From positions 537-64,536 of the forward strand of contig CAZKSJ010000002.1 of assembly GCA_964555515.1 (NCBI GenBank): 64,000 bases of DNA, read 5' to 3'. The translations under genes were made by a program, and so were the position numbers. The stretch is from an uncultured Pseudomonadales bacterium (GTDB taxonomy: Bacteria; Patescibacteriota; Microgenomatia; UBA1400; PJMF01). Within the stretch, counting starts at the first letter, position 1; each line of letters begins with the position of its first letter. The notes beneath the pieces were generated by a model. That model was not told the DNA's origin, searched no databases, and was given only the letters and a program-made list of their open reading frames with translations. Positions 1,047 to 29,733 of this stretch are shown here, piece after piece.

Positions 1047-1973
1047 TTACATTGCTTGCTTAGATTTATACCACTCCACTACCCGCCTCACTCCTTCGTC
1101 AAACTCCACCTTAGGCTGCCAATCAAGTACTTGTTGTGCTTTTTGGTAGGAAAGTGAGCTCGTCACTTGCTCGCCAGGTCTCTCTGACCCGTGTTGTTCG
1201 GGTATTGTTAAACCAAATTGCGTTACTACTTTATGAAAAACCTCATTGGTGCTAATTTCCTTGCCGGTGCCAATATTTAGTGCACCCACAAAACCACTAT
1301 CTACAGCGGCAACGTTGGCCTTGACTACGTCATCAATGTAAACGTAATCTCTGGTGTGGGTGCCATCGCCATTGATGATGGGCTGCTTGCCTTCGGCGAT
1401 CATTTCGCTAAAGATCGCGATCACGCCAGATTCGCCGTGCGGATTTTGGCGTGGACCATAGACGTTGGAGTAGCGAAGCACAATATGGGGAATCCCATAT
1501 TGCTCATGATAATAATTCAAGTATAACTCTCCCGCGCGTTTAGACACACCATAGGGTGAAAGTGGTTCTTCTTTCATTTCTTCTGTAAATGGAGTAGGTT
1601 TGTTACCATACATGGCGCCACCCGTGGATGCCATAATAATCTTTTGAACACTTACCTCTTTGGCGGCTTCCATGATGTGGAGCAATCCTAAAATATTGTT
1701 TATGGCGTCAAACTGGGGATCTCTGACTGAGTTGCCAACCTGAATATGAGCGGCATGGTGATTAATGAGCTGGGGGTTTTCTTCTCTGACAATTTGCTGA
1801 ATTCGCTCTTTGTCTGTGATATCGGCTTGAATAAACCGAGCTTGTCCATTGACGAACTCTTGTTTGCCAGTAGAGAGATTATCCACCACGACCACTTCGT
1901 GCCCGGCGGCACAGTAGGCATCCACCACGTGTGAACCAATAAACCCAGCGCCACCAGTTACCAATATTTTCAT
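1047..1973 (-). CDS. NAD-dependent nucleotide-sugar epimerase of the SDR family (UDP-hexose 4-epimerase-like, GalE type).
   Basis: N-terminal Rossmann motif VTGGAGFIGSH and catalytic YGVSK (YxxxK). Length and layout typical of GalE/WbpP-type epimerases. Confidence 0.8.
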   Translation of the reverse strand: MKILVTGGAGFIGSHVVDAYCAAGHEVVVVDNLSTGKQEFVNGQARFIQADITDKERIQQIVREENPQLINHHAAHIQVGNSVRDPQFDAINNILGLLHIMEAAKEVSVQKIIMASTGGAMYGNKPTPFTEEMKEEPLSPYGVSKRAGELYLNYYHEQYGIPHIVLRYSNVYGPRQNPHGESGVIAIFSEMIAEGKQPIINGDGTHTRDYVYIDDVVKANVAAVDSGFVGALNIGTGKEISTNEVFHKVVTQFGLTIPEQHGSERPGEQVTSSLSYQKAQQVLDWQPKVEFDEGVRRVVEWYKSKQAM

Positions 1974-1983
1974 AAATGCTCCT

Positions 1984-3243
1984 TTATGCTACCCATAATC
2001 CTTGAATAAATAAGACCGTATTAATCAATAATAGTATACCGGAAAATATCCAAATCCAGCGCCAGCGTGGAAATTTATCGAGTTGAATGCCTGCCCAAAC
2101 AAAGACTGGAAATGCCACCAGGAGGTATCTGGGCATGCTGGAGAGAGTGCCAGTCGTTGTGGGGAGCAAGACCGCAAGCGTCGTAAAGATAAGCCAGGAG
2201 TGTTTTATGCGTTTCTCCTGCATCCACAGCCAACCAATGATGATCAGGAAACTTATCGTCAAGAAAAACTCTTGGGCGTAGGTCAGCCATGTCAAGCTGA
2301 AAGGTACTGTCATCATAATTTTTAGACCCCGCCAAAGAGTTTGCGGCAATAAGATCAGATGCTCTTGCCTGCCTGCCCCGAACTCTGCTTGGACATGCAA
2401 GAAATAGAGAGGATCGCGGAACTCTCCCCACAAAAACAACATGTAAATGCCAATGCCAACTAAACCGAGGAGTGAAGAAATGACTTGCTTAGGATGGCTG
2501 CGTAGTTGCTGAGATAGTAGCTGCCAGAACTTATTCAATTTTTGAGTGAAACTCTGCTCATTGCTCTTAAATACTCGGCTGATTAGTGACGATACGTTCA
2601 GTGCCTCCCACAGTAAAGCTGGTACTAAAAACACGCCCACGACCCTAGTCGCAGCTGCAGCGGCAGCCAACAACCCAGCTAACCACCACCCTTGGTTGCC
2701 ACTAGCATAAAAAGTGCTTATCACAAGTAGTAAAAATAATGACTCTGAGTAGACCGCACCATGAAAGAAGCTGGTGGGAAATAATAAGAGTGTGATGAGG
2801 GCTAGCCAGGCTACATTGGTAGAGAATTGTTGGGCAGTGAACTTAAAAAATACCACTCCCCATAACAGGAGGGCAATGTTGCTGATCAACAGACCACTGA
2901 CAATCGTGTTATCGAACAATCGATTCAAAACCATCATTAGGTAAGGATATCCTGGAAAAAATGCTTGAATGAGTCCTGTACCAATGTATCCTTTTTCTGC
3001 AATGGTAATGTAGTGGACGCCATCAAAGTTTGCCCAAGAGTAAAGCCACTGCGGCAAGTTATATTTGGGTAATAATTCTGTAGCATATGGAAAACTAGGC
3101 TGATACATTATCAACCATGGGGCAATTATGCCAATTAAGATAAGCAGTGTTCGCCAGCCCAACAGTAATCCCATCACGGCAGATAATTCACTTTTTTTAT
3201 TTTTTAGCATTTTTGAAAAACTCCCATGTGATGACGACGACAA
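1984..3243 (-). CDS. Polytopic membrane glycosyltransferase, PIG-V/GPI-mannosyltransferase-like.
   Basis: Many predicted TM helices. Loop motif WANFDGVHYITIAEKGY...AFFPGYP resembles the PIG-V family signature. The true start is probably an internal Met, because the first ~40 nt overlap the upstream gene. Confidence 0.45.
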   Translation of the reverse strand: MSSSSHGSFSKMLKNKKSELSAVMGLLLGWRTLLILIGIIAPWLIMYQPSFPYATELLPKYNLPQWLYSWANFDGVHYITIAEKGYIGTGLIQAFFPGYPYLMMVLNRLFDNTIVSGLLISNIALLLWGVVFFKFTAQQFSTNVAWLALITLLLFPTSFFHGAVYSESLFLLLVISTFYASGNQGWWLAGLLAAAAAATRVVGVFLVPALLWEALNVSSLISRVFKSNEQSFTQKLNKFWQLLSQQLRSHPKQVISSLLGLVGIGIYMLFLWGEFRDPLYFLHVQAEFGAGRQEHLILLPQTLWRGLKIMMTVPFSLTWLTYAQEFFLTISFLIIIGWLWMQEKRIKHSWLIFTTLAVLLPTTTGTLSSMPRYLLVAFPVFVWAGIQLDKFPRWRWIWIFSGILLLINTVLFIQGLWVA

Positions 3244-4879
3244 GTCCGCTGATTGCTAACAGAGAAACCCAATTACCGATTTGCCGCGCCCAAGTATGTT
3301 GGGTGAAGCTAGACTCTACGGTGTAAGTTCCTGGATCTAATTCATATGCCAGCCGCCCAGCAATTTGGTCATTATTAATGTGATTTGCTTGATACTTATT
3401 CCCTTGATCATCGATCACAGTTGTCTCCCAGCCTGGGAAGGCCATCGTTGGCTCCACAATCGTCGCTTTTTCAAAGATACGAACCTGATAGCGTCGGTGT
3501 GAGCCAAACCACTCCTCTTCCGAAAACTCTCCTTGCCCACCCACCAAAACTAGCTCCTTATCCCAGTTAGGCATCTGATCAAACTGAGCTGTGACTGGTA
3601 AATTTTCATTATTGGTGGAGGTTGATTGGGTAAAAGCATCATAATCCACATTGGTTCGGTGAAAAAAGTCGGCTGGTTGAGCAGCCACAGCGGTACCAAG
3701 TTGGATAGCTAAGCCAATCACCAATAGACTCCGTGCAAATCTCCCACCTTCTGCCCAGATCCAGACCATCGGCACGAGCAAGAGCATGGGCAAATAGAGT
3801 GATAATCGCCAGGGGAATTGGATGAAGTTGGCAAGTGGGATCAGCTGCCAAATCGGTTCAGTCTGTTTGAGCTGAAATAACACAACAAGCAAAGCAAAGA
3901 ACAGCAACACCATCACGAGCTGATGATGAACTCGACAACTCTTAATAATCCTCTGCCAACCAATTAGAACCAATCCCAGGAGGATGGATACTAAAAAGGG
4001 CCAACCAATCTGAAAAGAGAGACTGTCTACAACTCCTGGATAAGAGAAACCAAACTGAACTGGTGAAAACAGTAATTGATTAAACTTAGGAAAGTGTTGA
4101 GCAAATTGATCTGCATTTTTGGCCTGATCAAGCACGATCATTGATTTTTCTGCCAAAGCCGGCAACCAAAACCATAAGCTTAATAAAATACCAAGCACCA
4201 AACTACCTAGCCAAGTCAACAACTTGCGATAATTAGATCTCATCCTAAGCAGTGCGTAAATTCCTAAGATGGGCAGAGCAAAAACCGCGCTGATATTATG
4301 ACTGAGTAAAAAAGCGGCTGTCAGAACCGACCAAACTCCAAATTGCCGCCATTGCCATTGACGATTAGCCAAAATTGATTCTATGACCCACAGCATCCAG
4401 GGAAATAGAGCATAGGCCATCACTTCACCAATATTACCGCGAAAGTTAATTAAGTTGATCAAATAGATCGAACTCACCCAACTACTGATGGCGATCACGT
4501 TTGCCCATCTAGAACTCGATTTAAAAACCAGATTTAGCCACAAATAGCCCCCCACCGCTCCAAAAATGATCGACAGACTCATCAATGCTTTAAACGTTAC
4601 TTCATAATTCAACTTGATGAATGAACCAGGCAAAGAAAGTATATTTGCCAGCGGGTAGTTATAGTTGAAAACGGGGTAGCCATACCTATTCATCAAATTA
4701 GGCGCCCAACGTGGTGGCAGCTGACCCTCGCGCAAGGCAATTTTATAATTTGCAAAACGTGCCAAGTGATTTTCACCGTCGTGGGTGTAAGGTACACCAA
4801 TCTGCATGTAATTATGCAGTAAAAACCAAATTGCCAAGATGACTAACAGCCAGGGCCAATGGTTGCGGATAAATTTCAT
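3197..4879 (-). CDS. GT-C-fold integral membrane glycosyltransferase, YfhO/PTPS-related family (paralog 1 of 3).
   Basis: N-terminal polytopic domain with the conserved motif YTHDGENHLARF...GYPVFNYNYP. C-terminal soluble domain contains FPGW and ends in a TM anchor. Same architecture as the ORFs at 10049 and 23994. Confidence 0.5.
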   Translation of the reverse strand: MKFIRNHWPWLLVILAIWFLLHNYMQIGVPYTHDGENHLARFANYKIALREGQLPPRWAPNLMNRYGYPVFNYNYPLANILSLPGSFIKLNYEVTFKALMSLSIIFGAVGGYLWLNLVFKSSSRWANVIAISSWVSSIYLINLINFRGNIGEVMAYALFPWMLWVIESILANRQWQWRQFGVWSVLTAAFLLSHNISAVFALPILGIYALLRMRSNYRKLLTWLGSLVLGILLSLWFWLPALAEKSMIVLDQAKNADQFAQHFPKFNQLLFSPVQFGFSYPGVVDSLSFQIGWPFLVSILLGLVLIGWQRIIKSCRVHHQLVMVLLFFALLVVLFQLKQTEPIWQLIPLANFIQFPWRLSLYLPMLLLVPMVWIWAEGGRFARSLLVIGLAIQLGTAVAAQPADFFHRTNVDYDAFTQSTSTNNENLPVTAQFDQMPNWDKELVLVGGQGEFSEEEWFGSHRRYQVRIFEKATIVEPTMAFPGWETTVIDDQGNKYQANHINNDQIAGRLAYELDPGTYTVESSFTQHTWARQIGNWVSLLAISGLVVVITWEFFKNAKK

Positions 4880-5910
4880 GATAACACTTGCTTGTAAACC
4901 TTAATTGTATCTTCGGCAGTTTTCTTCCAGGTGAATCCAGCCGCCCAGTGGGCAGCATCAAGCAGCCACTGCTCTCGAGATCGATTAGACCAAGATAGTA
5001 CTTCCTTGACACCCTCGGCGATAGCGTCCGACAATGGCTCGACATAGATGGCGTGTGATCCGCCAACTTCTGGCAATGAACCGCGTTTGGTGGCAACTAC
5101 AGGCGTCTGGCAATGCATCGCCTCCAATACTGGCAAGCCAAATCCTTCCGATAAAGACGGCTGCACATAACAAAGCGCGCCATTATAAATTGCTGCTAAA
5201 TCGGCGTTATCTTCTAAGCCAATGGTACTGATAAAATGCACTCTATCCGCTAGTTTATTTTTACTCATCGCCAACTTGATAGCTTGCCACTCAGGTATAG
5301 ACTGCTCCCGAAAGTTTTTGCCAATACAGACCAGCGTTATACCAGTCGGCAGATCGGCCACTGCTTTGATCAATTCTGGCAAGTTTTTATTATAATTTAT
5401 ATCCCCAACATACAGGATATATTTTTTTGGAATTTGATATTTATTGCTAATGGTCTCAATTGAAGAGGCATTTCCCAAACTAATATTTGGGTTTGCTGCC
5501 AAAGGTACGACGTGCATCTTCTCCTGCCTAATCCGCAGCAGCTCGGCTATTTGTTGCTTGGAATACTCTGAATCAGTAATCACAGCCTGCGCAAACCATA
5601 AACTGAGCTCTTGGCGTAATAAATTAAAACTGCCCCGTAAACCAGGGTGATGGGCTTTTGGAAATTCAAGTGGGATGACGTCATGAATAGTTACCACTGT
5701 TTTCTTTGACCTGTTGATGGGCAAAGTCGCTTTAAATAGATCAAAATAAGGATAGTGAACTAAGTCAGCTTGCCACCAGTTGTCATGGGGTGAAGTAAGT
5801 ATTTCTACTTTTTCCTCACGCAAAGCATCAATCAAACATTGGGTATACCTGCCAATCCCTCTGATTTGATGGCCAGTATGCAAGGGCAAGGTGTCAATAT
5901 AAATTTTCAT
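4876..5910 (-). CDS. Glycosyltransferase family 4 (GT-B fold).
   Basis: C-terminal EGFGLPVLEAMHCQTPVV matches the GT4 E-x7-E/EAMA signature. Overlaps its neighbour by 4 nt (ATGA). Confidence 0.8.
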   Translation of the reverse strand: MKIYIDTLPLHTGHQIRGIGRYTQCLIDALREEKVEILTSPHDNWWQADLVHYPYFDLFKATLPINRSKKTVVTIHDVIPLEFPKAHHPGLRGSFNLLRQELSLWFAQAVITDSEYSKQQIAELLRIRQEKMHVVPLAANPNISLGNASSIETISNKYQIPKKYILYVGDINYNKNLPELIKAVADLPTGITLVCIGKNFREQSIPEWQAIKLAMSKNKLADRVHFISTIGLEDNADLAAIYNGALCYVQPSLSEGFGLPVLEAMHCQTPVVATKRGSLPEVGGSHAIYVEPLSDAIAEGVKEVLSWSNRSREQWLLDAAHWAAGFTWKKTAEDTIKVYKQVLS

Positions 5911-6695
5911 GCCTTAGACTTTTCTCTGAGTGCCCAAACCTTAAACAAAACAAACGGATGATGCAGGCTACTCATTAAAGCAAAAATAAAGCCGCTCATG
6001 CCGTCCACATAACCACGATGGTGAAAAAACATGGAAAACAGTGTTGAGATTGGTTTGACAATCAAATACTGCCAAATGGTTGATTTTTGGATTGGCAAAA
6101 GATCAAGGCTAACTCGAGTGGCTTCAAATGAGGTATAAGTATTAAATTTTCTCATGTAGGCACTAAAATTGGGATATGGGTAATGAAGTAAGTGACCCTG
6201 AGCAACTCCAATTGCGCCATCGACCGTCATTTGCTCATGCACATTCTGCTGTGGTAATCTAGCCTTGCCCCTGATGTACAATCTGATCACTTCATCTGGA
6301 TACTGACCGCCTTTAGTCAATACGCGCCCAAAGAAATGATTGTAGCGAGCAATTTTCCAGGCCACTGGATCTTGTTTGTAGCTACCCTGCGCCAACTGAG
6401 TGGCTAGATTAGTAATGAAATCAGCCAAGATATTTTCGACCACTTCGTCGGCATCGAGTTGAAGAATTAAATCTCCCGTAGCAGCATCCATGGCCAGCTG
6501 TTTATTAATGTGAAAGTTTGGCTTGTTGGTGGTAGCTATTACCTTAGCACCAAACTTTTTAGCAATTTCTACAGTTTGATCAGTGGATTCGCCATCGGCA
6601 ATCACAATTTCATCGGCAAACCTCTTCACACTCTCCAAGCATCGTCCTAGGTTTAGTGCTTCATTGTGAGTGGCGAGGACAACAGAAATTTTCAT
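5907..6695 (-). CDS. Glycosyltransferase family 2.
   Basis: N-terminal ISVVLATHNEALNLGRCLESV...IVIADGESTD, a typical GT2 (GT-A) start. Coupled to the upstream gene by a 4-nt overlap. Confidence 0.75.
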   Translation of the reverse strand: MKISVVLATHNEALNLGRCLESVKRFADEIVIADGESTDQTVEIAKKFGAKVIATTNKPNFHINKQLAMDAATGDLILQLDADEVVENILADFITNLATQLAQGSYKQDPVAWKIARYNHFFGRVLTKGGQYPDEVIRLYIRGKARLPQQNVHEQMTVDGAIGVAQGHLLHYPYPNFSAYMRKFNTYTSFEATRVSLDLLPIQKSTIWQYLIVKPISTLFSMFFHHRGYVDGMSGFIFALMSSLHHPFVLFKVWALREKSKA

Positions 6696-6719: not shown

Positions 6720-8345
6720 TTAGAACTGACTCAATTGCCAAGTGTCACCTGTCCATTCAACTAATAACTGCTCTTCATCTCGGTCAGCTGGCTGACCAAT
6801 AAAATGATATTGGGCTACTTGTTGACCATACCTAAAACCAATTCTATCAGGTGCTTGTCTAATCACCGAGGAGAAAAACTCTTCGGGAGTGATTTTTAGA
6901 TACCAACTGAGCAGAATATACTGGTAACCGCTAGGGTCGACAATGGCGACGGCTTTATCTTGCGACTGATCATCAACGCGTTTGATAAATTCATCAAAGT
7001 CCGACTGAAAAATAGTGGTTTGGTGTGATGGATAGCGAGTAAAGTAGGCGATTAAGTAACGGCTAAAACAAATCAAGCTGACCAAAGACAACCCGACAAA
7101 TATGGATAACTCAAGTTTTCTCTTAGATATTTTCCTTATCGTGGCTATTCTTGGCAAAATATCCGCGAATACCAAGCTGATAATGATCGGTATCCAGGCA
7201 AGAAATAATAAACTACGAGTGGTATGGGGAGCGTCAGCGGTGATGGTGGCTGGTGCTAGCGCTATGATCAACACATACAACGCGATCAGCATTCGACCAA
7301 GTGATGAATTCATCCAAGGCTGGGCTATTGATTTAAAAAATGATTTGTTACCGCGAACCCGGCCAATCAGGTGAGAACTCGCTCTGTACATGATCCAAAA
7401 GATAGAAACTATCAGCAGCGCATAGACCAACCAATTGATATGACCCCAACCAGGTATAGAGTGCCATGGATGCGCCCCACCATTCACAACCAAGAAGTTG
7501 ACACCAAAGCTCGCGATCACTCTTTCAATAATTAATCGCCCATAATAAACATATTGGTTCCCAAATAAATTTAACCAGATACCCGAGAATTGAGCTCTAT
7601 AGGATGGATAAGCAGTAACAATTGTTTCATCAGCAAAGATGGTGATAGCACTTTTTTGAGTAGTTAAGGGAGCGAGGATCATCCACACAGCCATGAAGAC
7701 AATTAGTAGTCCAATTGATGTCACCACCCAGTTTCGATAACTGCGAGCGCCACGCATCACCAATATTAAGACAGCAAAAAAAGGCATGAGTAGCAGGGGT
7801 GTGTTATAAGTCAACGAGCAAATGACCAATAAAATTAGGGCTAATAAATCTCGCCACCAGATAAACTTGCTGTTCATCAATAAGATGAGCGCAGAGATGA
7901 GAATCCCAAGAGCCAGGTTGGCTTCAAAAGCCATTCTTGAGTAAAAGAAAAATACGGGCGATGAAGCTAGAATCATGGCTGCCGCTAAAGACCAGATCTG
8001 ACTCAACTTTAATCTCCTGGCTAAGATATAGATCAGCGCTGGTAGGATTGAGCCCGCCATCACCGACGGTAGCCGGACTACCCAATCTGCAGCAGGCAAC
8101 GCTTTGAAGATTATGGCAAGTAGAAATGGATATCCTGGCAACTTGTAATCGCCAAATGATTCCAAAGCCAGTGGCCAGCTTCTACCCCACTCATCTTGTC
8201 CAGTTTTTGAGAGTAGAAGTCCGTTATAGGCCAAGGCTGCTTCATCTCGATTGAGAATGTTGGGATTTTGCTCAATCTGCCAAATCCGCAGGAAAAAACT
8301 CACTACGACTACACCCAAAACTAGCCAATTATGAATTGACTTCAT
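6720..8345 (-). CDS. GT-C membrane glycosyltransferase, ArnT/PMT-like (GT39/GT83-type; family A).
   Basis: Polytopic protein. The first periplasmic loop carries NRDEAALAYNGLLLSKTGQDEWG...ESFGDYKLPGYPF, the DE...GD motif of ArnT/PMT_2 enzymes. Confidence 0.75.
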   Translation of the reverse strand: MKSIHNWLVLGVVVVSFFLRIWQIEQNPNILNRDEAALAYNGLLLSKTGQDEWGRSWPLALESFGDYKLPGYPFLLAIIFKALPAADWVVRLPSVMAGSILPALIYILARRLKLSQIWSLAAAMILASSPVFFFYSRMAFEANLALGILISALILLMNSKFIWWRDLLALILLVICSLTYNTPLLLMPFFAVLILVMRGARSYRNWVVTSIGLLIVFMAVWMILAPLTTQKSAITIFADETIVTAYPSYRAQFSGIWLNLFGNQYVYYGRLIIERVIASFGVNFLVVNGGAHPWHSIPGWGHINWLVYALLIVSIFWIMYRASSHLIGRVRGNKSFFKSIAQPWMNSSLGRMLIALYVLIIALAPATITADAPHTTRSLLFLAWIPIIISLVFADILPRIATIRKISKRKLELSIFVGLSLVSLICFSRYLIAYFTRYPSHQTTIFQSDFDEFIKRVDDQSQDKAVAIVDPSGYQYILLSWYLKITPEEFFSSVIRQAPDRIGFRYGQQVAQYHFIGQPADRDEEQLLVEWTGDTWQLSQF

Positions 8346-8459
8346 ATTACTATCTTAGCATTAATTCATTCTCAGCTGGCATAAGCTCTGTGTTTACACT
8401 CCACATAAACACGTTTCATCAATACATTCCTGGCCGCTTAAGCTATAATTTTGGGTGAA

Positions 8460-10052
8460 ATGTTACGAACTAAGACTAATAAAATATACAAATTAATCAC
8501 CCAAACAAATATTTGGATCGATAAGGCTAGCTTTTTTCAACTTAGTGTCGTATTATTTTTCTTCTCTTTTTTTGTCCACACTGTGTACGCATTAGGTCAC
8601 AATACATTTTTACAAGATTCAGCACGAGACATCCTGATTGCAGAAAACCACTTGGCTAATCAAGAGTTGATCGTTAATTATGGCCCAAAAGCGAGCGTTG
8701 GCAACTTCTACCTTCCACCATTTTACTATCAACTGCATTTAATAGTGACAGGATTGGTACCATTTTTTCCCCTTGCCATGAGATGGGTGATATTATTTGT
8801 GGAATCTTTCACTCCTGTGATGATTTTTCTACTGTTAACACTATTCATACCAAAAAGATCTGCTTTCTTCATCAGTCTATTATATGTTTTATTCCATCAA
8901 GTCTTGATTTATTCAACCCAAAGCTGGAACCCAAATATGATTCCATTTTTCACAACCAGTTTTTTGGTATGTTGGCTGTATTATATTAAAAACCATGATT
9001 ATGGATTGATTTATTTAGCTTTATTAGCTCTCGCCATCTCACTACACCTGCATTATCAGACATTCATCTTATTGCCATTTGCCTTGATAGTTTGGACTTT
9101 TTCGTTTATCAAATTTAAGACTGCAAGAAAACATTTGCTCCTCAGCCCATGGGTAGCTGCCATCCCGTTTTTGCCTTATTTGTGGGCAGAGATAACCAAT
9201 TCATTTATTAATACCCAAGCAATAATTGCTTTCTTTTCTCAAGAGCATGCGCTCTATTATGATCGGGTTTCAAAACCCGCCTATGTGTTGACATATTTTC
9301 CCTCATTTATGGAAAGATTGATATTTAGCAAAGAAATGCCTTTTCATTTCATCGGCAGCTTACTATTTTTTGGTGGCTTTTCTATTGCTTTAATTAAATC
9401 TAAGAATAATATTATTCTAAGATGGTTGTTGTTCTATTTTGGTATGGCGTTTGTGATACTAAGAGTCTTCAAAGGTGACAAATTGGATTATTACTTAATG
9501 ACTTTGTTTATATTACCCACTTTTTTATTAGCTTGCTATCGATTGATCTCAACAAGATTGACGGTTATTTTGGGTTCAATTATGCTAATTTTAATACTAT
9601 GGTATTTACCGACGCTGAAAACACATAATTTTTATCGGGACCTAAAACAAATCGTGTCGTTTATTGAAATTAAATCACCCACTCAAGATATTCAGGTCGT
9701 TTTTCACGACTTGAGTAACGCCAATTATCTTTACTACGGACTACTTAAATTTAGCAATCTCAGCATAGTGCCAGCATCAACTACTTTGGTTGATCTATGT
9801 CCTAGTTATGAAGCACAGTGCGCCTGGGACGGGATAGCCATGTGCAAACCAGGAACCCCAGATGATGAAGAAGTTTTCTGGTATGCACTCGATGCCAAGT
9901 ACCACAACGACTATAAAGTAATCAGCTACAAAAAAATTGATGATAAGTTTCAGGTAGCAATTGGTCAAGTCAACCAACCCAGATCTTTGCCAAATCACCC
10001 TCAACAGCATGACGCATCATGGTATGGTAGTGACTTCTTGATTCCTTTATGA
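8460..10052 (+). CDS. GT-C membrane glycosyltransferase, ArnT-like family B.
   Basis: Polytopic protein. Motif QDSARDILIAENHLANQELIVNYGPKASVGNFYLPPFYY aligns with the ArnT DEARY...GDW loop. Paralogous to the ORFs at 43559 and 50801. The track start at 8451 is TTG; ATG at 8460 is more likely. Confidence 0.55.
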   Translation: MLRTKTNKIYKLITQTNIWIDKASFFQLSVVLFFFSFFVHTVYALGHNTFLQDSARDILIAENHLANQELIVNYGPKASVGNFYLPPFYYQLHLIVTGLVPFFPLAMRWVILFVESFTPVMIFLLLTLFIPKRSAFFISLLYVLFHQVLIYSTQSWNPNMIPFFTTSFLVCWLYYIKNHDYGLIYLALLALAISLHLHYQTFILLPFALIVWTFSFIKFKTARKHLLLSPWVAAIPFLPYLWAEITNSFINTQAIIAFFSQEHALYYDRVSKPAYVLTYFPSFMERLIFSKEMPFHFIGSLLFFGGFSIALIKSKNNIILRWLLFYFGMAFVILRVFKGDKLDYYLMTLFILPTFLLACYRLISTRLTVILGSIMLILILWYLPTLKTHNFYRDLKQIVSFIEIKSPTQDIQVVFHDLSNANYLYYGLLKFSNLSIVPASTTLVDLCPSYEAQCAWDGIAMCKPGTPDDEEVFWYALDAKYHNDYKVISYKKIDDKFQVAIGQVNQPRSLPNHPQQHDASWYGSDFLIPL

Positions 10053-17648: not shown

Positions 17649-17667
17649 GCAGCTCCATTGTAGCGGT

Positions 17668-21485: not shown

Positions 21486-22394
21486 TTATTTGCTAATTCG
21501 CTTCTTAAGCTGCCACCATTTTTTGGTAACTCCTTGAGAATTTGCTACCCGTTCGGCTGCTAACCAGTAAGCCAACTCGCGCTGTAGTTGCTCCACCGCC
21601 TTCATAACATCCCCCTTTGGCTGATGAGTTAGTGGGCACCCCTGCAATTCCCAAGCCTTTAGCTCTACGACTAATTGATAAGTACTTTGTAAAAATGACA
21701 AGGCAATGCCATGCACATCTTCACTGATCCCTTCTTCGGCAAACAAGCGGCGCATTAATTCCTGCCGATAGGTATCAATCAACTGACTAGGCTGAATCGT
21801 CAATTGAGACTTACCCTCCTTAGCAGAAATAGTCGTGTATCGATCTAAGCGCTGCAGATAATCACTTACCGAGCGATAATTATGGTGCTCGATGGCTAAA
21901 TCCTCAGCAACGGGCAAGTACTCAATCTGACCCTCAATGATTGGTTGGCTGTGAATTTCATTGCGCCACTTCACTTTGCCACGCCTAAATAACCGTGGTT
22001 GGTAGTCTGGCCACCAGCCAGTTTTTTGAATCCACTTGCCGAAGATGATGTTCTTACGAGCGATAAAATAGCAGGACACATCTGGGTCTTGAGTGACCAC
22101 CGTCTCAATTTTTTTCTTTAAGCCGCTGGAAATTATTTCGTCTGCATCCACCAACAATACCCAGTCAAACTTGGCTTTGCTCAAGGCAAAGTTGCGGGCT
22201 GGCTCAACGTACGACACATCCTCTTTAAAATCATAAATTTTTTCAGTGAATTTCTTTGCAATCGCCTTACTATTATCACTGCTCAGCATATCTACCACCA
22301 CAATCTCATCAGCCCACTTCACAGACTGGAGAGTGTCTTTGAGGGTTTCCGCCGCATTTTTGGTATTGATTACTACAGAAACTTCTGCTGCCAT
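21486..22394 (-). CDS. Glycosyltransferase family 2.
   Basis: VSVVINTKNAAETLKDTLQSV...IVVVDMLSSDNS...LLVDADEI. Confidence 0.7.
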   Translation of the reverse strand: MAAEVSVVINTKNAAETLKDTLQSVKWADEIVVVDMLSSDNSKAIAKKFTEKIYDFKEDVSYVEPARNFALSKAKFDWVLLVDADEIISSGLKKKIETVVTQDPDVSCYFIARKNIIFGKWIQKTGWWPDYQPRLFRRGKVKWRNEIHSQPIIEGQIEYLPVAEDLAIEHHNYRSVSDYLQRLDRYTTISAKEGKSQLTIQPSQLIDTYRQELMRRLFAEEGISEDVHGIALSFLQSTYQLVVELKAWELQGCPLTHQPKGDVMKAVEQLQRELAYWLAAERVANSQGVTKKWWQLKKRISK

Positions 22395-22425: not shown

Positions 22426-23991
22426 TTACCGATGTTGCAAAAGTGAGCTAACTTCAAACTTTAATTTTTGATATCCGGTGAGCACTATCACAACTACGTA
22501 TGCTAGGCCGGTTAACACCATTCCCACAAACATCATCGGTAGGCTACTCAACCACCACGACATACCCAGAACTCCAAAGACTGCCATCACTAGACTAGCC
22601 AGGATCTGGCGCCAAACCTGATCCCATGGTTCTATAGGCACGTATTTTTTCACCAACCAAAACGGAATTACTGAAGATAAGCTGATCACCAATGCAGAGA
22701 TAGCCACGCCTTCATAACCAAATTTAATAACTAGCAATGGTGTCAGCAACCAAGTTAATGCTGTCCAAAACACCATTAGTTTTAAAGTGGTGGAAATTTT
22801 GCCAATCGCGTTGAGAGTGTTCGTTAACGGGGTGGACAAGGCGCTGCCCAAAATACTTAAGGTAAACAAAATCACGCTTAAAACAGCTGGTTGCCACTTG
22901 TTATATTGTGGAATTAAAGTGACTAGCGGATAAATAAATACTGACATACCAATTAAGATAGGAAAGATTGCCAAGGATATAAAAAATAATGACTTTTCAA
23001 TCGCTCTTTTTAGCAAATGAGTTTGGCTTTGCAGCCGCGAAAAAGTAGGAAATGTCACCGCCATCACGTTCTGGACCGTCAAATTATAGGGATACATGGA
23101 CCAGTTTTTTGACCACTGTACATAGCCAAAGTCCTTTAGAGGCAAGTACAAACCGAGTGCTAAGAAAAAGAGGTTGTCCTTGATCCGTGCCAACAAATCA
23201 TTTAACTGAAACTTAACTCCATAACCCAGTAGTTTTTTTACTGAGGAAGCATAGATACCAATCTTTGGCCACCAAGGCTTGATGGAGTACATGACTATCA
23301 CCCCCACAATCGAGCGACCAATGATGGCCGGCGCATAAGCCATCGCCCCCAAACCCTGCCATGCTAATGCTACCAACACAATATTAAACAATAGTTGTTC
23401 CACTATTTGTGGAATCACCAATTTAGAAAAGTCTAACTCCCTTTCTAACTGAATAGCTGGAATGGTTTTTAAAGAAGCCAGGGGAAATGAGAAACCTAAG
23501 GCCAGCAGAATCAGATTGGCGGCGTTTGAGCCGGTTTTTTCTAGTAAAAACCCTGATAAAACAATCAGCACACAAACAGCAAATATTAGCCATGACAAAG
23601 CCTGCTGCAAGGAAAATGCAGTTGCATAGTCATGATCAGTTGGCTCTGTTTTTGATTGAATTAAAGCAGCGGCCAGGCCGATATCTGAAAAGAAAACCAA
23701 GATACCAATGATCTGCACCACGATTCCATAAACAGCAAAGTCCTCAGGGGAGAAAAAAGAACTCAAGATAAAGATAGTCACTAAGCCAATTGCTTGCAAC
23801 AAAATTGTTCTCAAAAAAAATGAAGCTGCCCCACGCACAGACTGGCGTTTGACATGCGCCACATATTGGTCTGTGGTCATGGCGGATTGAGACGCTGCCA
23901 AAGTTGGTGAAGGTACGGTCTCATTTGAATTAGGCTCGGCCACGGTCAATAAAGGTACTCGTACTGTTGGAGTCAAATTTTTTTTGGCCAT
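22426..23991 (-). CDS. Wzx-type oligosaccharide flippase (MOP/polysaccharide biosynthesis protein family).
   Basis: About 14 predicted TM helices and a typical MOP flippase layout. Start set at MAKKNL (23991), 2 nt after the stop of the upstream gene. The track's 28-aa N-terminal extension overlaps that gene. Confidence 0.7.
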   Translation of the reverse strand: MAKKNLTPTVRVPLLTVAEPNSNETVPSPTLAASQSAMTTDQYVAHVKRQSVRGAASFFLRTILLQAIGLVTIFILSSFFSPEDFAVYGIVVQIIGILVFFSDIGLAAALIQSKTEPTDHDYATAFSLQQALSWLIFAVCVLIVLSGFLLEKTGSNAANLILLALGFSFPLASLKTIPAIQLERELDFSKLVIPQIVEQLLFNIVLVALAWQGLGAMAYAPAIIGRSIVGVIVMYSIKPWWPKIGIYASSVKKLLGYGVKFQLNDLLARIKDNLFFLALGLYLPLKDFGYVQWSKNWSMYPYNLTVQNVMAVTFPTFSRLQSQTHLLKRAIEKSLFFISLAIFPILIGMSVFIYPLVTLIPQYNKWQPAVLSVILFTLSILGSALSTPLTNTLNAIGKISTTLKLMVFWTALTWLLTPLLVIKFGYEGVAISALVISLSSVIPFWLVKKYVPIEPWDQVWRQILASLVMAVFGVLGMSWWLSSLPMMFVGMVLTGLAYVVVIVLTGYQKLKFEVSSLLQHR

Positions 23992-23993
23992 AA

Positions 23994-25805
23994 CTAATCC
24001 CTTTGTTGGCGCTGGTGGTAAAAAAAAGTCAACACCACCAGCAAAGCCACAGCAGATATTACATCCGCCCACCATCTAATCGGTGTTGATGCAAAGTTAA
24101 TCCCCACCAAGTGCTCACCCGCTGGCACCAGTACTTGGATCAAGCCATCTTTATCGATTGTTGTTGGCACGCGCTCTCCATCAACCTCTGCTACCCACCC
24201 CGGAAAGTACGCCACAGAAAAGCTAATTTGACTATCATCAGTCTGTGCCAACTCGATCAACTTCTGATGCGTTCTATTTACTAATACTTTGTCCACCAAT
24301 CTCTCACCTTCATCGAGATTGCATTCAGGATCACACTTAAATGGTTGAGTTGGAGCCTGGTCAATCAACTTAAAATCTTTGGGCATAAAGTCCGGTAAAA
24401 TGCCACTCATCTGCTTCTGAATCTTCAGCTCGTCTGCATAGTACAGTTCTTCTGGGTTATCAAGTAACGATTCTGCTTTAAAGTACCGAAAGTTGCCTAA
24501 AATTAAGAGGATGAGCACTCCTGCAACCAATAACCTACTTGGAAAGCTTTTTACTAAGCGCGTGGCATAACCAATCATAAGTCCGGAAAAAACTGCTGTC
24601 ACAGCTAAAAATCTCCACGGAAATTGCACGTATCGCAACAATTCAGTACCTTCCCAAGCAAATAAAGTTTTCTCGGTAGCCAACAGAATGCTCATGGCAA
24701 ATAATAAGCACGCCGTCCACAGCAAGCCGTGCTGCCAAAGAAATTTTTGCCTCAACTGACGCTGATGCCAGAAGAGTCTAGCCGTCAACAAGCCGGTGAT
24801 AAAAATTCCCACCAACTGTCCCCAACCTAGAAAAAAGGAGATGCCATCTTCCGGTCCCCAAACCGATCCACCATATCCCCAATATGGCGTAAATAACTGC
24901 CTTAAATAAATAAAATGAAGATGAAAATCAAAGTATCCAGAGATGATCAACTTCTCCACCATAGTGTAATGTTTCTCAGTAAATGCAGGCAATAAATAAA
25001 ATGCCGACAACGCTCCCGCCAGAACGTAGGCGGTGCTAAATTTAGGCAAATATTCTTTGACATCTTCCAGCATGATTTTGCGAAGATGAGATGAATTATT
25101 CTGGCTCACTTGATTGGCATTAACCCACATCCATTTGAATCCCAACCATAGCAACACAAACAATAAGGCAAACGGAACAAAAATAAGAGTCATTAAGTTA
25201 TGACTCAAGAAAAGAGTGCACAAACTGAGCAATAATATCCACAAGCCGTGTTTTTGTCGTTTCAATATTAGCACTGACCCATATAAAACCATGACTCCAG
25301 CCATCATCCCCCAGGCTTCACCCAAAGCACCACGGATGAATAGATTAACTGCCCGGTATGGGGCGAGCGTAATTGCTGCAGCCGTCATTAATCCACCCAG
25401 GCGCCCAAAGAGTGACTTGCCCAATAAATACGCTGCAATGGCTGTACCTAGTGTTGCTAACCAAAACAATAACTGAACACTGACGGGCAAAGAGAAACCA
25501 AATAGCCAAAATAGAGCACCCAAGTAATAAGGAAGAGGGGCATAAAACTCAAACAAAGGCATGCCGTAACCGTATCCAAGGTTTTGACTCCAGCGGACGG
25601 GAAAGTGACCATCTTGTAATGCCCTGCCCATTTCCGCAATTCTTGCGCCATGTACATAGTCGTGGGTCTTAATCATGCCTGGTTGAAGTAGTTCCCATGA
25701 CGCAGCGAACACAAGTGCAGCTAGTATCATTCCCACCAAAATCCGCTTCATAGATAGTATTGTAGCGTAATCAGTGGTTATAATGTGCACTGATGGCAGA
25801 TTCAT
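23994..25805 (-). CDS. GT-C-fold membrane glycosyltransferase, YfhO/PTPS-related family (paralog 3 of 3).
   Basis: Motif IKTHDYVHGARIAEMG...GYGYGMPLFEFYAPLP. C-terminal AYFPGWVAEVDGERV...VPAGEHLVGINFASTP followed by a TM anchor. Confidence 0.5.
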   Translation of the reverse strand: MNLPSVHIITTDYATILSMKRILVGMILAALVFAASWELLQPGMIKTHDYVHGARIAEMGRALQDGHFPVRWSQNLGYGYGMPLFEFYAPLPYYLGALFWLFGFSLPVSVQLLFWLATLGTAIAAYLLGKSLFGRLGGLMTAAAITLAPYRAVNLFIRGALGEAWGMMAGVMVLYGSVLILKRQKHGLWILLLSLCTLFLSHNLMTLIFVPFALLFVLLWLGFKWMWVNANQVSQNNSSHLRKIMLEDVKEYLPKFSTAYVLAGALSAFYLLPAFTEKHYTMVEKLIISGYFDFHLHFIYLRQLFTPYWGYGGSVWGPEDGISFFLGWGQLVGIFITGLLTARLFWHQRQLRQKFLWQHGLLWTACLLFAMSILLATEKTLFAWEGTELLRYVQFPWRFLAVTAVFSGLMIGYATRLVKSFPSRLLVAGVLILLILGNFRYFKAESLLDNPEELYYADELKIQKQMSGILPDFMPKDFKLIDQAPTQPFKCDPECNLDEGERLVDKVLVNRTHQKLIELAQTDDSQISFSVAYFPGWVAEVDGERVPTTIDKDGLIQVLVPAGEHLVGINFASTPIRWWADVISAVALLVVLTFFYHQRQQRD

Positions 25806-25873
25806 TTAAAACTAGCAACCCTGCATACTACTCTCTCGCAGAAGGCGTGCCAGAGAAAACACAGCCTGCAGAG

Positions 25874-26950
25874 ATGTTTAGTCTTCCCAAATTGCTGCTT
25901 AAAGCAACACTATTGGCAATAGGTATATTTTTTGTGATGGTCATTGCAACCGCGCTCATCGCCAGCATCTTTGCTTACCACCGCGCTAATCAATTTTTAA
26001 ATCAAGTTCCCCTTAGTTGGTCTGAGGTTTATAACTTATCAAAATTAAGTCAAGCACATCAAGTAAATAATGACCAAGGCATTTCAAACTTTTTAATCTT
26101 GGGCACCGACACTGTGCCTAACAAACCCAACGCACCAGTCCTAACAGATAGCGTCCTGCTCGTTAGTCTTAATAGTAATAATGGAGAAATCAACCTCATC
26201 TCATTACCGAGAGACTTGTGGATAGATGCCTATCAGACCAGAATAAATGCTCTCTACTACTATGGTCAAGAGCGTTATCCTACGCAACCTGAACTTTTTC
26301 CCACAGAGGTGGTTGCGGAACTAACTGGCCTACCAATTCATTACACGTTGATCATTTCTCTAGAAACACTCAGCCAGATGGTTGATGCCTTGGGAGGCAT
26401 TGAAGTTGAAGTAGCCGCAAGTTTTACCGATACGCAGTTCCCCAGAGATGAGGTAGACGTTAGAGCCGAACAAGATCCAACTAAACTTTATAAAACTATT
26501 ACTTTTACGCAAGGTATCGAGCACATGAGTGGGAGTCGTGTTTTAGAATACGCCCGCAGCCGTTATAGCAATGGAGAGACAGGCACTGATCTCAACCGAT
26601 CTGAGCGACAGCAAGCAGTCATCGCTGGCATAATGAATAAATTGTCCAAGCCCTCGGTCATGCTTGACCCCAACACCGCTGCCAAAATTTACCTAATCTA
26701 TGATCAACAACTTGCTACAGCAGTGCCACTGATTGATATAGTCGTCTTTTTAAAACAGCTCTTCCCCTTGCGAGACCAAATTGTGTTGCAGAGTCATCAC
26801 CTAGCTATCTATCCAGATGAAGAAAATGGGGTAATTGAGCACCCGCCCATGAAGACAACGCAGGGCCAGTGGATCTATCAAGTTCGCAATCCTGAGCTTT
26901 TCCAACAGGAAATCTATGATAAGCTGGCTATCAAATCTACTCAAAAGTGA
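25874..26950 (+). CDS. LytR-CpsA-Psr (LCP) family glycopolymer-to-peptidoglycan ligase.
   Basis: N-terminal TM helix, then FLILGTDTVPNK...TDSVLLVSLNS...ISLPRDLWID, the LCP signature. Start placed at the internal Met MFSLPK. The track start at 25793 would overlap the divergent upstream gene by 13 nt. Confidence 0.75.
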   Translation: MFSLPKLLLKATLLAIGIFFVMVIATALIASIFAYHRANQFLNQVPLSWSEVYNLSKLSQAHQVNNDQGISNFLILGTDTVPNKPNAPVLTDSVLLVSLNSNNGEINLISLPRDLWIDAYQTRINALYYYGQERYPTQPELFPTEVVAELTGLPIHYTLIISLETLSQMVDALGGIEVEVAASFTDTQFPRDEVDVRAEQDPTKLYKTITFTQGIEHMSGSRVLEYARSRYSNGETGTDLNRSERQQAVIAGIMNKLSKPSVMLDPNTAAKIYLIYDQQLATAVPLIDIVVFLKQLFPLRDQIVLQSHHLAIYPDEENGVIEHPPMKTTQGQWIYQVRNPELFQQEIYDKLAIKSTQK

Positions 26951-28278: not shown

Positions 28279-28812
28279 ATGAAAGTTGATCCCAAATACC
28301 AAGCAATGCTGACAACCCAAGACTATGGTTCCTCTCCCTCCATCGATGGTGTCGAACTAATCAAGCTTAACCTACATACAGATGACGGGGGAAATTTTCT
28401 TGAAGTCTTTCGTCTCACCGACTCCCAAGTTAGCGGTTTATCCACCGCCTTTGAAGTTAGGCAAGTTAGTCTTTCTGTCATGTATCCTCAGGTTGTGAAA
28501 GCTTTTCATATACATCAGAAGCAAGATGATTTGTGGTTCGTGCCACCTTCTCACCGGTTATTAATCAACCTGCATGATGTGAGAGAGGGCAGTAGTACTT
28601 TTGATCAACACATGCGCGTAGTTTTGGGCGGAGGGCAAGCCAATTTGCTCCGAATTCCCACTGGCGTCGCGCATGGTGTTAAGAATTGTTATGATCAACC
28701 CATGTTTTTATTTTACGCCACCAATCAGCAATTCAATGCGCAAGCTCCCGATGAAAATCGGTTACCTTGGGATGTTTTTGGGTCTGATGTCTGGGAAGTT
28801 ACCAAAGGTTGA
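28279..28812 (+). CDS. rfbC: dTDP-4-dehydrorhamnose 3,5-epimerase-like cupin (RmlC).
   Basis: 177 aa. Cupin blocks KAFHIHQ, LLRIPTGVAHGV and the terminal RLPWD align with RmlC conserved regions. Sits between rmlB and rmlD. Confidence 0.65.
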   Translation: MKVDPKYQAMLTTQDYGSSPSIDGVELIKLNLHTDDGGNFLEVFRLTDSQVSGLSTAFEVRQVSLSVMYPQVVKAFHIHQKQDDLWFVPPSHRLLINLHDVREGSSTFDQHMRVVLGGGQANLLRIPTGVAHGVKNCYDQPMFLFYATNQQFNAQAPDENRLPWDVFGSDVWEVTKG

Positions 28813-28839
28813 TTATTAACTCTTTTTAAAAACAACAGA

Positions 28840-29733
28840 ATGAAATCAGAAATACTTGTCACTGGGTCTGGTGGATTAATCGGTTCTAAGTTTGTGCAAT
28901 CTTTGGCTGATCGGTATCATTTTCAGATGCTGGATATATCACATCCCACCAATCCGGTTGATATCACTAACTTTCAGCAACTTTTTAATTCAGTGCAGAA
29001 TTCTACTGCTCCTTTTTTAGTGCACTTTGCAGCTTACACCGATGTGACTGGAGCTTGGCAACAGACGGGTGATCAAACCGGCATTGCCTACCAAGTCAAC
29101 GTCGTTGGCACCCAAAATATTGTCAAGGTCTGTCAAGAAACAAACAAACACTTGATTCATATTTCTACTGCCTATGTGTTTGATGGTCAGAAAAAGGAAC
29201 AATACCTTGAAACTGATCGCGTTCATCCTATTGAGTGGTACGGAGAAACCAAAGCAAAGGCGGAAGAAGAAGTCATGAAAAGTGACAAGCCTTGGACAAT
29301 TCTTCGTATCGACCAACCATTCCGTCAAGATCCTTTCGTTAAACCAGACATTGCCCATGGCATTGCCCACCAGCTCCTGGATCACACCTTGCCTCCCCAG
29401 TTCATTGACCACTGGTTTGGCCCGACGGTAATTGAGGACTTAGTGAAAGTGATTGAGTGGGTTTTTCGCACTAATACGACCGGCTTGTATCACGCCACTA
29501 GCGGTGAGTCTTGGAACAATTTTGAATTTGCCACCAAAATTGCTGAACTGATGAATAGCTCAAATCAGGTTCAGTCTAGCAAACTGGCGGATTATCTAAA
29601 AACTTCTCAACGTCCATACCAACAAAATACCGCTCTCAATAATCAAAAGTTGGCCTCATTGCTAGATTTTAAACTTAACTCTGTCACATCAGCCTTAAAA
29701 TTAGTTAATTACTCATCGTCCGCAGCACTTTGA
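28840..29733 (+). CDS. rfbD: dTDP-4-dehydrorhamnose reductase (RmlD).
   Basis: ILVTGSGGLIGSKF Rossmann motif and catalytic YGETKAKAEE. About 297 aa, typical RmlD size, in the expected operon position. Confidence 0.65.
   Translation: MKSEILVTGSGGLIGSKFVQSLADRYHFQMLDISHPTNPVDITNFQQLFNSVQNSTAPFLVHFAAYTDVTGAWQQTGDQTGIAYQVNVVGTQNIVKVCQETNKHLIHISTAYVFDGQKKEQYLETDRVHPIEWYGETKAKAEEEVMKSDKPWTILRIDQPFRQDPFVKPDIAHGIAHQLLDHTLPPQFIDHWFGPTVIEDLVKVIEWVFRTNTTGLYHATSGESWNNFEFATKIAELMNSSNQVQSSKLADYLKTSQRPYQQNTALNNQKLASLLDFKLNSVTSALKLVNYSSSAAL

Follow-up and report, generated by a model that had tools for sequence, protein, structure and literature searches.

A conserved Microgenomatia operon rich in GT-C glycosyltransferases and its possible role in making a wall-linked glycopolymer

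Gene content and layout of the island

The window analysed here is a 64,000-nt stretch of DNA from an uncultured bacterium (GTDB lineage Patescibacteriota; Microgenomatia; assembly GCA_964555515.1, contig CAZKSJ010000002.1), and its positions 1047-29733 hold an island of 23 contiguous glycan-related genes, identified from an open reading frame (ORF) map together with Pfam and NCBIfam scans. The island comprises a GalE-like epimerase of the short-chain dehydrogenase/reductase (SDR) family, nine polytopic membrane ORFs, two GT4 and six GT2 glycosyltransferases, a Wzx/MOP flippase, a LytR-CpsA-Psr (LCP) protein, RmlB, and RmlC-like and RmlD-like proteins. The GT2 genes start at 5907, 11803, 17668, 19699, 20514 and 21486, the GT4 genes at 4876 and 18581, and the membrane ORFs encode 419-603 amino acids (aa) with 6-11 predicted transmembrane (TM) segments each. 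An earlier note, made from the sequence alone, had listed the same families as one contiguous set; this inventory holds except for the GT2 genes, of which it had counted seven instead of six. ORFs are named below by their lowest coordinate where no other name is given.

The genes fall into four transcription blocks, read leftward from 8345 to 1047, rightward from 8451 to 12522, leftward from 25805 to 12532 and rightward from 25793 to 29733. The tight junctions described earlier are borne out, with five 4-nt overlaps and most other gaps measuring 1-54 nt; a 262-nt gap lies 5' of RmlB. Four longer apparent overlaps are probably start-codon artefacts. The Wzx ORF (22426-24075) overlaps the 3' end of the gene named b1 (23994-25805) by 82 nt, with about 75 residues preceding its first TM segment; comparably long overlaps are seen at 16017/16075, 17668/17696 and 18581/18609, and the b1 and LCP (25793-26950) ORFs overlap head to head by 13 nt. 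Translation probably begins further inside these ORFs, for example at M19 in b1 and at M17 in a2, and residues 1-18 of a2 have a predicted local distance difference test score (pLDDT) below 50 in the AlphaFold2 model. The listed start of Wzx is likewise probably too far upstream, its first TM segment being placed at residue 86.

These ORFs are real genes and not chance ORFs, since the homologues at E<1e-100 number in the hundreds for every one of them and their order is kept in about 50 genomes. The island and its flanks have a uniform GC content (0.37-0.47); on this ground, and because the locus is conserved across the lineage, horizontal acquisition was rejected. A promoter and terminator scan of positions 900-20000 gave no enrichment over shuffled sequence (42 promoter-like signals versus 44; 20 terminator-like versus 17) and was not used for operon calls.

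The long operon lies on the minus strand and begins with b1 (23994..25805), a GT-C-type membrane protein with a BLAST match of 4e-28 to 10049 and weak C-terminal matches to YfhO (19.2 bits over 52 residues; threshold 28.5) and PgfM1 (23 bits). It is followed by the Wzx/MOP-family flippase (22426..24075), which has 12 predicted TM segments and matches Polysacc_synt_3 (PF13440) at 159.3 bits and Polysacc_synt (PF01943) at 77.7 bits; its NCBIfam equivalogs stay under their cut-offs, and its orthologues at the same position score 420-595 bits. Next come three GT2 and one GT4 transferase: GT2e (21486..22394; Glycos_transf_2, 61.8 bits), the rhamnosyltransferase-like GT2d (20514..21431; Glyco_tranf_2_3, 77.6 bits; TIGR01556, 85.4 bits, under its cut-off of 200), GT2c (19699..20517; Glycos_transf_2, 64.2 bits) and GT4b (18581..19702; Glycos_transf_1, 70.2 bits). 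GT2b (17668..18609; Glycos_transf_2, 42.2 bits) leads into a tandem series of GT-C-type genes, a1 (16017..17696; BLAST 1e-17 to 1e-25 to a2-a4), a2 (14306..16075) and a3 (12532..14292; BLAST 7e-42 to a2).

The series continues on the minus strand beyond an inverted module with a4 (6720..8345), of the PMT_2/GT39-like group, which passes PMT_2 with 30.3 bits against a cut-off of 26.1 and matches a1-a3 at 1e-19 to 1e-30. Behind it lie GT2a (5907..6695; Glycos_transf_2, 69.5 bits), GT4a (4876..5910), a cytoplasmic GT4 of GT-B fold (Glycos_transf_1, 92.1 bits), and b3 (3197..4879), of the PTPS_related/YfhO-like group, which passes PF10131 (51.6 bits versus 26.4). The PIG-V/PMT_2-like GT-C gene, called PIGV here (1984..3243), probably starts near 3210; its database copy has 408 aa, and the source names of its homologues include 'Gpi18-like mannosyltransferase'. 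The last gene of the operon encodes the GalE-like NAD-dependent sugar 4-epimerase (1047..1973), with Pfam Epimerase at 206.6 bits and NCBIfam galE at 196, under its 262 cut-off.

The inverted module on the plus strand carries the GT-C-type genes c1 (8451..10052) and b2 (10049..11806) and a small soluble GT2 of 239 aa (11803..12522; Glycos_transf_2, 76.6 bits) of the polyprenyl-phosphate-sugar synthase type (PpgS/AglJ/DPM-like). c1 has no Pfam match of its own and is related at 2e-14 to 50801, which itself passes PMT_2.

Divergent from the long operon, the LCP glycopolymer transferase gene (25793..26950, plus strand) matches PF03816 at 97.5 bits and passes TIGR00350 (82.5 versus 62.3); residues 41-59 of its product form an N-terminal TM segment. 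Downstream on the same strand lie RmlB (27213-28277; TIGR01181, 470.8 bits versus 365.1), an RmlC-like gene (28279-28812) and an RmlD-like gene (28840-29733). The latter two pass Pfam (55.6 and 157.9 bits) and stay under their NCBIfam equivalogs (46.7 versus 155.75 and 151.5 versus 224). The 177-aa RmlC-like cupin also just passes PF14667 (Polysacc_synt_C; 29.2 versus 28.7 bits), a flippase C-terminal membrane domain; this match covers the dTDP_sugar_isom residues of a protein with no predicted TM segment, and probably reflects a spurious or contaminated model.

Assignment of the membrane proteins to the GT-C superfamily

The Pfam models suggested in the earlier note place only two of the nine membrane ORFs of the island above threshold, 3197 (PTPS_related) and 6720 (PMT_2). 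Sub-threshold matches alone were obtained for 1984, 12532 and 23994, and no Pfam match for 8451, 10049, 14306 and 16017. The PMT_2/PMT models (PF13231/PF02366) are passed by 6720 and, outside the island, by 43559, 46918 and 50801; 1984 (22.5 bits) and 12532 (19.9 bits) fall below threshold and 14306, 16017 and 8451 give nothing. PF10131 finds 3197 and neither 10049 nor 23994, and is carried by many homologues of 10049. The YfhO model (PF09586) reaches its threshold in none of the group B proteins described below, with a sub-threshold match in 23994 and no match in 3197 or 10049. PF04188 does not match 1984 itself at E<=0.01; the Pfam matches of its 48 orthologues belong to the GT-C clan only (PMT_2 19, PIG-V 18, GT87 4, PTPS_related 1, ALG10 1). 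In NCBIfam nothing scores above cut-off for any membrane ORF, and five alignments compared with the PDB by sequence and by profile returned no meaningful match, so the GT-C call rests on fold and not on sequence.

All-against-all BLAST sorts the proteins into three groups of paralogs. Group A consists of 16017 (a1), 14306 (a2), 12532 (a3) and 6720 (a4), and PMT_2 is found at E<=0.01 in 13 of 53 members of this group. Group B consists of 23994 (b1), 10049 (b2) and 3197 (b3), with mutual E values of 1e-16 to 1e-28, and group C of 8451 (c1) together with 43559 (c2) and 50801 (c3) outside the island. By hhalign, groups A and C are linked at 96% probability; no profile-level link appears between groups A and B (13%), between 1984 and group A (3%) or between the 1984 family and group A (10%).

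AlphaFold2 models of a2 and b2, built from alignments of 50-53 sequences, have pLDDT values of 92.5 and 93.1. When the a2 model was searched against the PDB with Foldseek, the top 44 matches were all GT-C enzymes (STT3 at 3e-8, PglB, AglB, ArnT at TM-score 0.50-0.53, ALG12/9/3, Emb, Pmt4, DPY19 and AftA/D), and the best 30 matches of b2 were GT-C as well. Major facilitator superfamily transporters appeared with a probability of at most 0.16 and TM-scores of about 0.1. Identity to these fold-level matches is only 9-13%.

A conserved acidic motif lies in the first loop, just after TM1, which from this position would face outward. Across orthologues, a1 has D-E in 61/61, a2 has E-E in 80/80, a3 has D-E in 40/40 and a4 has D-E in 42/42. 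In group B, b1 has H-D in all 20 complete orthologues, and b3 has the D in 31/31 and the HD motif in 30-31/31. The 1984 family keeps an invariant F73-D74-G75-x-H77-Y78, including D74, and the three group C paralogs share D56/R59/D60. A lack of conservation of the DE/DxD loops, which the earlier note had named as a refuting result, is thus not seen over 20-80 orthologues per gene.

The rival possibility that these proteins are transporters or other non-glycosyltransferases, with the GT-C call an artefact of hydrophobic similarity, could appeal to the seven of nine ORFs without a Pfam match above threshold and to the empty PDB searches. Since the fold searches give GT-C almost exclusively, the first-loop motifs are invariant and the genes have GT2, GT4, Wzx and LCP genes as neighbours, we regard it as extremely improbable, in agreement with the earlier view that these are GT-C enzymes and not transporters. 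From the fold matches, the invariant acidic motifs and the GT-C-clan matches of the 1984 orthologues, all nine membrane proteins of the island are predicted to be GT-C enzymes. The family labels PMT, YfhO and PIG-V do not hold at family level.

The group B proteins end in a beta-sandwich followed by a final TM helix (residues 490-582 in b2, 10049-11806, plus strand). In b2 the sandwich weakly resembles in fold the all-beta domains found in glycoside hydrolases (GH13 neopullulanase/TreS, GH30 XynC, GH31), a likeness that hints at a carbohydrate-binding module and hence at a glycan acceptor.

Conservation of the operon across related genomes

Proteins of the window are present on the metagenome assemblies SRR10812145-7, and their homologues come almost entirely from metagenome-assembled genomes (MAGs) of Patescibacteria named Pacebacteria, Woesebacteria, Daviesbacteria or Microgenomates. 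When the group A alignment was used to scan GTDB, at one genome per species, 80 loci were obtained, the closest of them from UBA1388 (64% identity). Gene order was compared in the 49 loci of at least 18 kb, all from species-level genomes, over the 20-kb flanks covered. In most of them the same order recurs despite protein identities of 33-43%: divergent LCP, then b1-Wzx-GT2e-GT2d-GT2c-GT4b-GT2b-a1-a2-a3-a4-GT2a-GT4a-b3-PIGV-GalE, often with a small GT2 next. The position is held in 44/49 loci by both GT4b and GT2c, in 43/49 by GT2d, in 39/49 by GT2e, in 32/49 by GT4a and, after the PIG-V-like gene, in 25/49 by the GalE-like epimerase; those of GT2a and GT2b are conserved too. In six representative loci followed gene by gene, there are at most a few unassigned ORFs inside the operon, and none in three (L078, L020 and L044). 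Wherever at least 500 bp of upstream sequence was available, the divergent LCP gene lies immediately upstream of the operon (13/13 loci).

The genes a1-a4, b1 and b3 are one-to-one positional orthologues, for which the best paralog leads the next by 150-400 bits, and the a1 orthologue stands first in the a1-a4 series. The commonest pattern is a1-a2-a3-a4, exact in 16 loci and with an extra a1-like copy in 8 more. The tandem GT-C genes are therefore paralogs of long standing, every one retained for a separate role, and their positional orthologues across 49 loci mark a lineage-wide core locus and not a one-off. Group A is also a large family, since its profile recovers 5,369 clusters at 50% identity (E<=1e-30) from public data. 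More broadly, an order of 16-17 operon genes kept at about 35-40% identity in dozens of species-level genomes argues for a structurally defined glycan under strong selection.

The inverted module at 8451-12522 (c1, b2 and GT2 11803) is accessory and occurs at a similar site in four other loci (L021, L023, L027, L033). In most related loci a small PpgS-like GT2 follows GalE; in the window this place is taken by ORF 533-949 (minus strand, 138 aa), which has no family match and no homologue in any fetched related locus. That the PpgS-like gene sits in the inverted module (11803-12522) and not after GalE suggests a local rearrangement.

These data bear on whether the island is an ordinary strain-variable Wzx/Wzy locus of the capsule or O-antigen type, in which some GT-C-like proteins would act as polymerase or ligase. 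Wzx does adjoin many GT2, GT4 and nucleotide-sugar genes, as it would in such a locus. Gene content and order are, however, kept at 33-43% identity in about 50 species-level genomes with one-to-one orthologues, whereas serotype loci behave in the opposite way, and the GC content equals that of the flanks. For the polymerase, the chain-length regulator and the initiating phosphoglycosyltransferase of a Wzx/Wzy-dependent pathway (the Wzy, Wzz, WbaP and WecA families), no match was found in any ORF of the window. A Wzx/Wzy locus is accordingly a very unlikely explanation.

The earlier note had called eight GT-C enzymes in one locus exceptional. This is so relative to typical model bacteria; within the lineage it is not, for the 21 kb around the a2 orthologue carry 3-8 GT-C genes (median about 6) and keep them in the same gene order, so that the island is the norm for its lineage. 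Large GT-C sets are also found in Mycobacteriales, which carry more than ten such enzymes, including the tandem embCAB. In the searchable literature no description of the conserved seven-GT-C operon was found. Nothing related turned up beyond a remark that 29 glycosyltransferase genes are present in one Microgenomates genome (PMC7143001), and a paper on Saccharibacteria deals with the rhamnose polysaccharide of the host and not with one of the epibiont. The operon is new as a feature shared across the lineage of Microgenomates-type bacteria of the candidate phyla radiation (CPR), and its components are all of known kinds.

Dozens of GTDB-species MAG records that carry this Patescibacteria-type operon in the same order are titled 'uncultured Pseudomonadales bacterium' (L012-L016, L029, L030, L033 and many others). 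Others are labelled 'Methylococcaceae' or 'Limisphaerales', and one protein name reads 'Vitreimonas sp.'. The NCBI organism labels on these records look wrong.

A linked second locus

A second glycan locus lies at 43559-56781. It contains c2 (43559-45163, plus strand; passes PMT_2) and, on the minus strand, a PMT-like GT-C (46918-48588; passes PMT), a weakly MptA-like ORF by NCBIfam (48694-50025), a PgfS/ArnC-like GT2 (50028-50804), c3 (50801-52342; passes PMT_2), a GT2-GtrA fusion (52355-53554), GMD (53551-54540), an SDR epimerase/reductase here called Epim2 (54525-55505) and a UDP-glucose dehydrogenase, UGDH (55471-56781). The three additional GT-C enzymes that had been noted 14 kb from the island are thus confirmed by Pfam (43559, 46918 and 50801), with 48694 as a possible fourth. 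In all, the window carries 12-13 GT-C genes, in a type of genome of about 1 Mb.

In six other genomes, orthologues of UGDH and Epim2 lie directly beside the row TrmD-RmlD-RmlB-LCP and the divergent Wzx operon (L043, L060, L061, L073, L079, L082), and GMD and the GT2-GtrA fusion likewise adjoin in the four loci that reach far enough (L060, L073, L079, L082). Because these orthologues are contiguous with the island elsewhere, the two loci of the window belong together.

A proposed pathway and the alternatives to it

The locus implies extensive extracytoplasmic glycosylation by an uncharacterised pathway, as the earlier note had said. GT-C enzymes need lipid-phosphate-linked donors. For the GT-Cs of the window, use of polyprenyl-phosphate(-diphosphate)-linked donors is putative and is suggested by the nearby PpgS/AglJ/DPM-like GT2 and GtrA genes. 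For GT2 11803 the best NCBIfam scores are AglJ (76.8), PpgS, the mycobacterial polyprenyl-phospho-GalNAc synthase (68.6), and Dol-P-hexose transferase (53.4), followed by PgfS, all sub-cut-off; the small GT2 after GalE in related loci scores 94-104 bits against PpgS over its full length.

We give an even chance to the reading that the cluster builds a rhamnose-containing heteropolysaccharide covalently attached to the cell wall. From the gene families and their order we infer the following steps. Nucleotide sugars would come from RmlB/C/D and the GalE-like epimerase and, in the second locus, from GMD, Epim2 and UGDH. The polyprenyl-phosphate primer would be the product of an enzyme whose gene lies at another site; five GT2 and two GT4 enzymes would lengthen it on the cytoplasmic face, and the lipid-linked oligosaccharide would be flipped by Wzx. 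PpgS/DPM1-like GT2s (11803, 50028 and the GT2-GtrA fusion 52355) would supply polyprenyl-phosphate monosaccharides. On the outer face, the seven core GT-Cs (b1, a1-a4, b3 and the PIG-V-like protein) and the accessory c1 and b2 would each add a defined sugar or linkage, and LCP would move the finished polymer to peptidoglycan. A wall-linked polymer is favoured by the conserved divergent LCP gene (13/13 loci) and the adjacent dTDP-rhamnose genes.

Several points weigh against this reading. The case is built from genes, synteny and predicted folds, and the donor and acceptor specificity of GT-C enzymes is not readable from sequence. The assignments of polyprenyl-phosphate-sugar synthases are all under NCBIfam cut-offs. 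RmlA is absent from the 64-kb window and from the conserved operon, and no priming phosphoglycosyltransferase is found in either. Of the four dTDP-L-rhamnose equivalogs RmlB alone passes, with RmlC and RmlD supported by Pfam only, so that the 6-deoxyhexose may be a sugar other than L-rhamnose. Proteins can occasionally serve LCP enzymes as acceptors, and Wzx could flip a polyprenyl-phosphate monosaccharide, as GacK does, instead of an oligosaccharide. The missing primer gene has parallels, since the primers of the streptococcal rhamnose-glucose polysaccharide (RGP) and of mycobacterial arabinogalactan are also encoded elsewhere.

Protein O-glycosylation of the PMT type had been among the readings proposed in the earlier note, which suggested testing for Ser/Thr/Pro-rich secreted or S-layer proteins elsewhere in the genome. 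Here the GT-Cs would be PMT/Pgf-type transferases acting on S-layer, pilin or other secreted proteins, through polyprenyl-phosphate sugars or a Wzx-flipped oligosaccharide. The PMT-style D-E motif of group A, group C and ORF 46918 fits this, as do the proteins among them that pass PMT_2 or PMT. The GT2s are weakly similar to PgfS and AglJ, as is the tail of b1 to PgfM1, and the operon tail (GT-C, GT-C, epimerase, GT2) is like the pgf operon of S. mutans. The LCP gene is nevertheless strictly conserved beside the operon, and the similarity to PMT and STT3 folds is at superfamily level (9-13% identity). No ORF of the window matches a MIR domain, and no WWD-type peptide-binding motif was seen. 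The window encodes no Ser/Thr-rich target; ORF 30630 has a poly-Pro linker with an ordinary Ser/Thr content. Seven distinct conserved GT-Cs also exceed the number in any known system of this kind. The preference for PMT-type O-glycosylation finds no specific support, and we consider this alternative unlikely.

The GT-C enzymes might instead extend a membrane-anchored lipoglycan, of the lipomannan/lipoarabinomannan (LM/LAM) or glycolipid-anchored lipoteichoic acid (LTA) kind, on a glycolipid anchor made by the GT4 enzymes and flipped across the membrane. PIG-V-like and MptA-like GT-Cs are present, GT4a is weakly similar to MshA, GlcNAc-phosphatidylglycerol synthase and LTA-anchor glycosyltransferases, and the GT-C-heavy design matches mycobacterial LM/LAM synthesis. 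Yet the GT4 matches are all far under their cut-offs, the locus showed neither an acyltransferase gene nor a phosphatidylinositol-related one, and the adjacency of the conserved LCP and Rml genes argues for transfer to the wall. A lipoglycan is thus quite an unlikely product.

Beyond the wall-linked rhamnose heteropolysaccharide itself, a wider proposal is that Microgenomates-type CPR bacteria have a previously unrecognised, lineage-defining wall glycopolymer. A set series of seven or more GT-Cs that diverged long ago would build most of it beyond the membrane, and it would be an independently arisen functional analogue of mycobacterial arabinogalactan. This is put forward tentatively and with some doubt. 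Such a glycopolymer might form the envelope layer, or the surface in contact with hosts, that has been seen on cells of CPR bacteria.

Relation to known systems

Among the closest design parallels are the mycobacterial and corynebacterial arabinogalactan and LM/LAM pathways (WecA, WbbL, GlfT1/2; the Emb/Aft/Mpt GT-Cs; PpgS/Rv3779; Lcp1). Alike in both are a cytoplasmic lipid-linked primer with a rhamnose step (proposed for the island), many dedicated polyprenyl-phosphate-sugar GT-Cs outside the membrane (predicted donor use here), a PpgS-like synthase, an LCP ligase for peptidoglycan attachment and tandem GT-C genes as in embCAB. In contrast, the island has no sequence-level orthology to Emb, Aft or Mpt (fold level, 9-13% identity). 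No decaprenylphosphoryl-arabinose (DPA) pathway or galactofuranose genes were detected here, Wzx is present, and the organism belongs to the ultra-small CPR bacteria, its genome measuring about 1 Mb.

Streptococcal and lactococcal rhamnose wall polysaccharides (RGP and the group A carbohydrate GAC with GacI-J-K-L; L. lactis rhamnan and polysaccharide pellicle with GT-Cs) are core wall polymers that replace teichoic acid. They share with the island the dTDP-rhamnose genes, GT2/GT4 rhamnosyl- and glycosyltransferases, a priming enzyme outside the locus, an undecaprenyl-phosphate-sugar synthase with a flippase and GT-C side-chain addition, and LCP attachment, the last three as predicted for the island. 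Those systems export rhamnan by an ABC transporter (RgpC/D) and use one to three GT-Cs, whereas the island and the conserved operon have no ABC transporter gene, Wzx is the sole flippase and seven to nine GT-Cs dominate.

Gtr-type three-component glycosylation (GtrA flippase, GtrB polyprenyl-phosphate-sugar synthase and GtrC/GT-C; YfhO/CsbB; S. mutans Pgf) is matched by the synthase-like GT2s 11803 and 50028, the fusion 52355 and their GT-C partners, and the tail module GT-C/GT-C/epimerase/GT2 mirrors pgfS-pgfM1-pgfE-pgfM2. Unlike in these systems, the YfhO match is sub-threshold, the GT-C number is far above one per module and the modules sit in a single operon of 16-17 genes. From ArnT and PMT (GT83/GT39) the proteins of the island differ in that they give no PDB match by sequence or profile, and identities are 9-15%. 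MIR domains are lacking here, a1-a3 and b1-b2 are under the Pfam thresholds, and group A is a large family in its own right. The system works like the mycobacterial and the streptococcal or lactococcal pathways with Gtr-type side-chain modules, and belongs to none of them.

CPR bacteria, or Patescibacteria, make up a large share of bacterial diversity, and very little is known of their envelope chemistry. The locus offers a testable handle in the form of a gene set, conserved catalytic motifs and a predicted LCP-peptidoglycan linkage, which could guide work on glycan chemistry, the interpretation of cryo-electron tomography, studies of phage and host recognition, and marker-based surveys of uncultured bacteria. 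It also widens the set of organisms that rely on large GT-C batteries, so far mainly Mycobacteriales.

Neighbouring genes and other features of the window

Just beyond the Rml genes, a 381-aa protein (30630-31775, plus strand) without a Pfam match combines a TM segment at its N-terminus with a stretch of eight prolines and an extracellular domain of no recognised family. In three related loci (L008, L014, L015) its orthologues (347-369 bits) adjoin an S11 D-Ala-D-Ala carboxypeptidase, immediately upstream of the GT-C genes. The protein may belong to the envelope and be connected with the glycan system.

Two features between GT-C genes of the second locus, spanning 45288-46803 together, are not part of the glycan system. 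One is a tRNA-Gln (CTG) at 45288-45359 (minus strand). The other is a regulatory pair. Its OmpR-type response regulator (45465-46139, plus strand) faces a convergent ORF of 232 aa, with which it shares 35 nt; that ORF carries HATPase_c only and looks like a histidine kinase without its sensor and dimerization (DHp) parts.

When the whole window (1-64000) is divided into 32 segments of 2 kb, 29 of them show a negative GC skew, and the cumulative value drops steadily to -2.29 regardless of the direction of the genes. One complete Microgenomates genome is reported to have a strong disparity in composition between its strands (PMC7143001).

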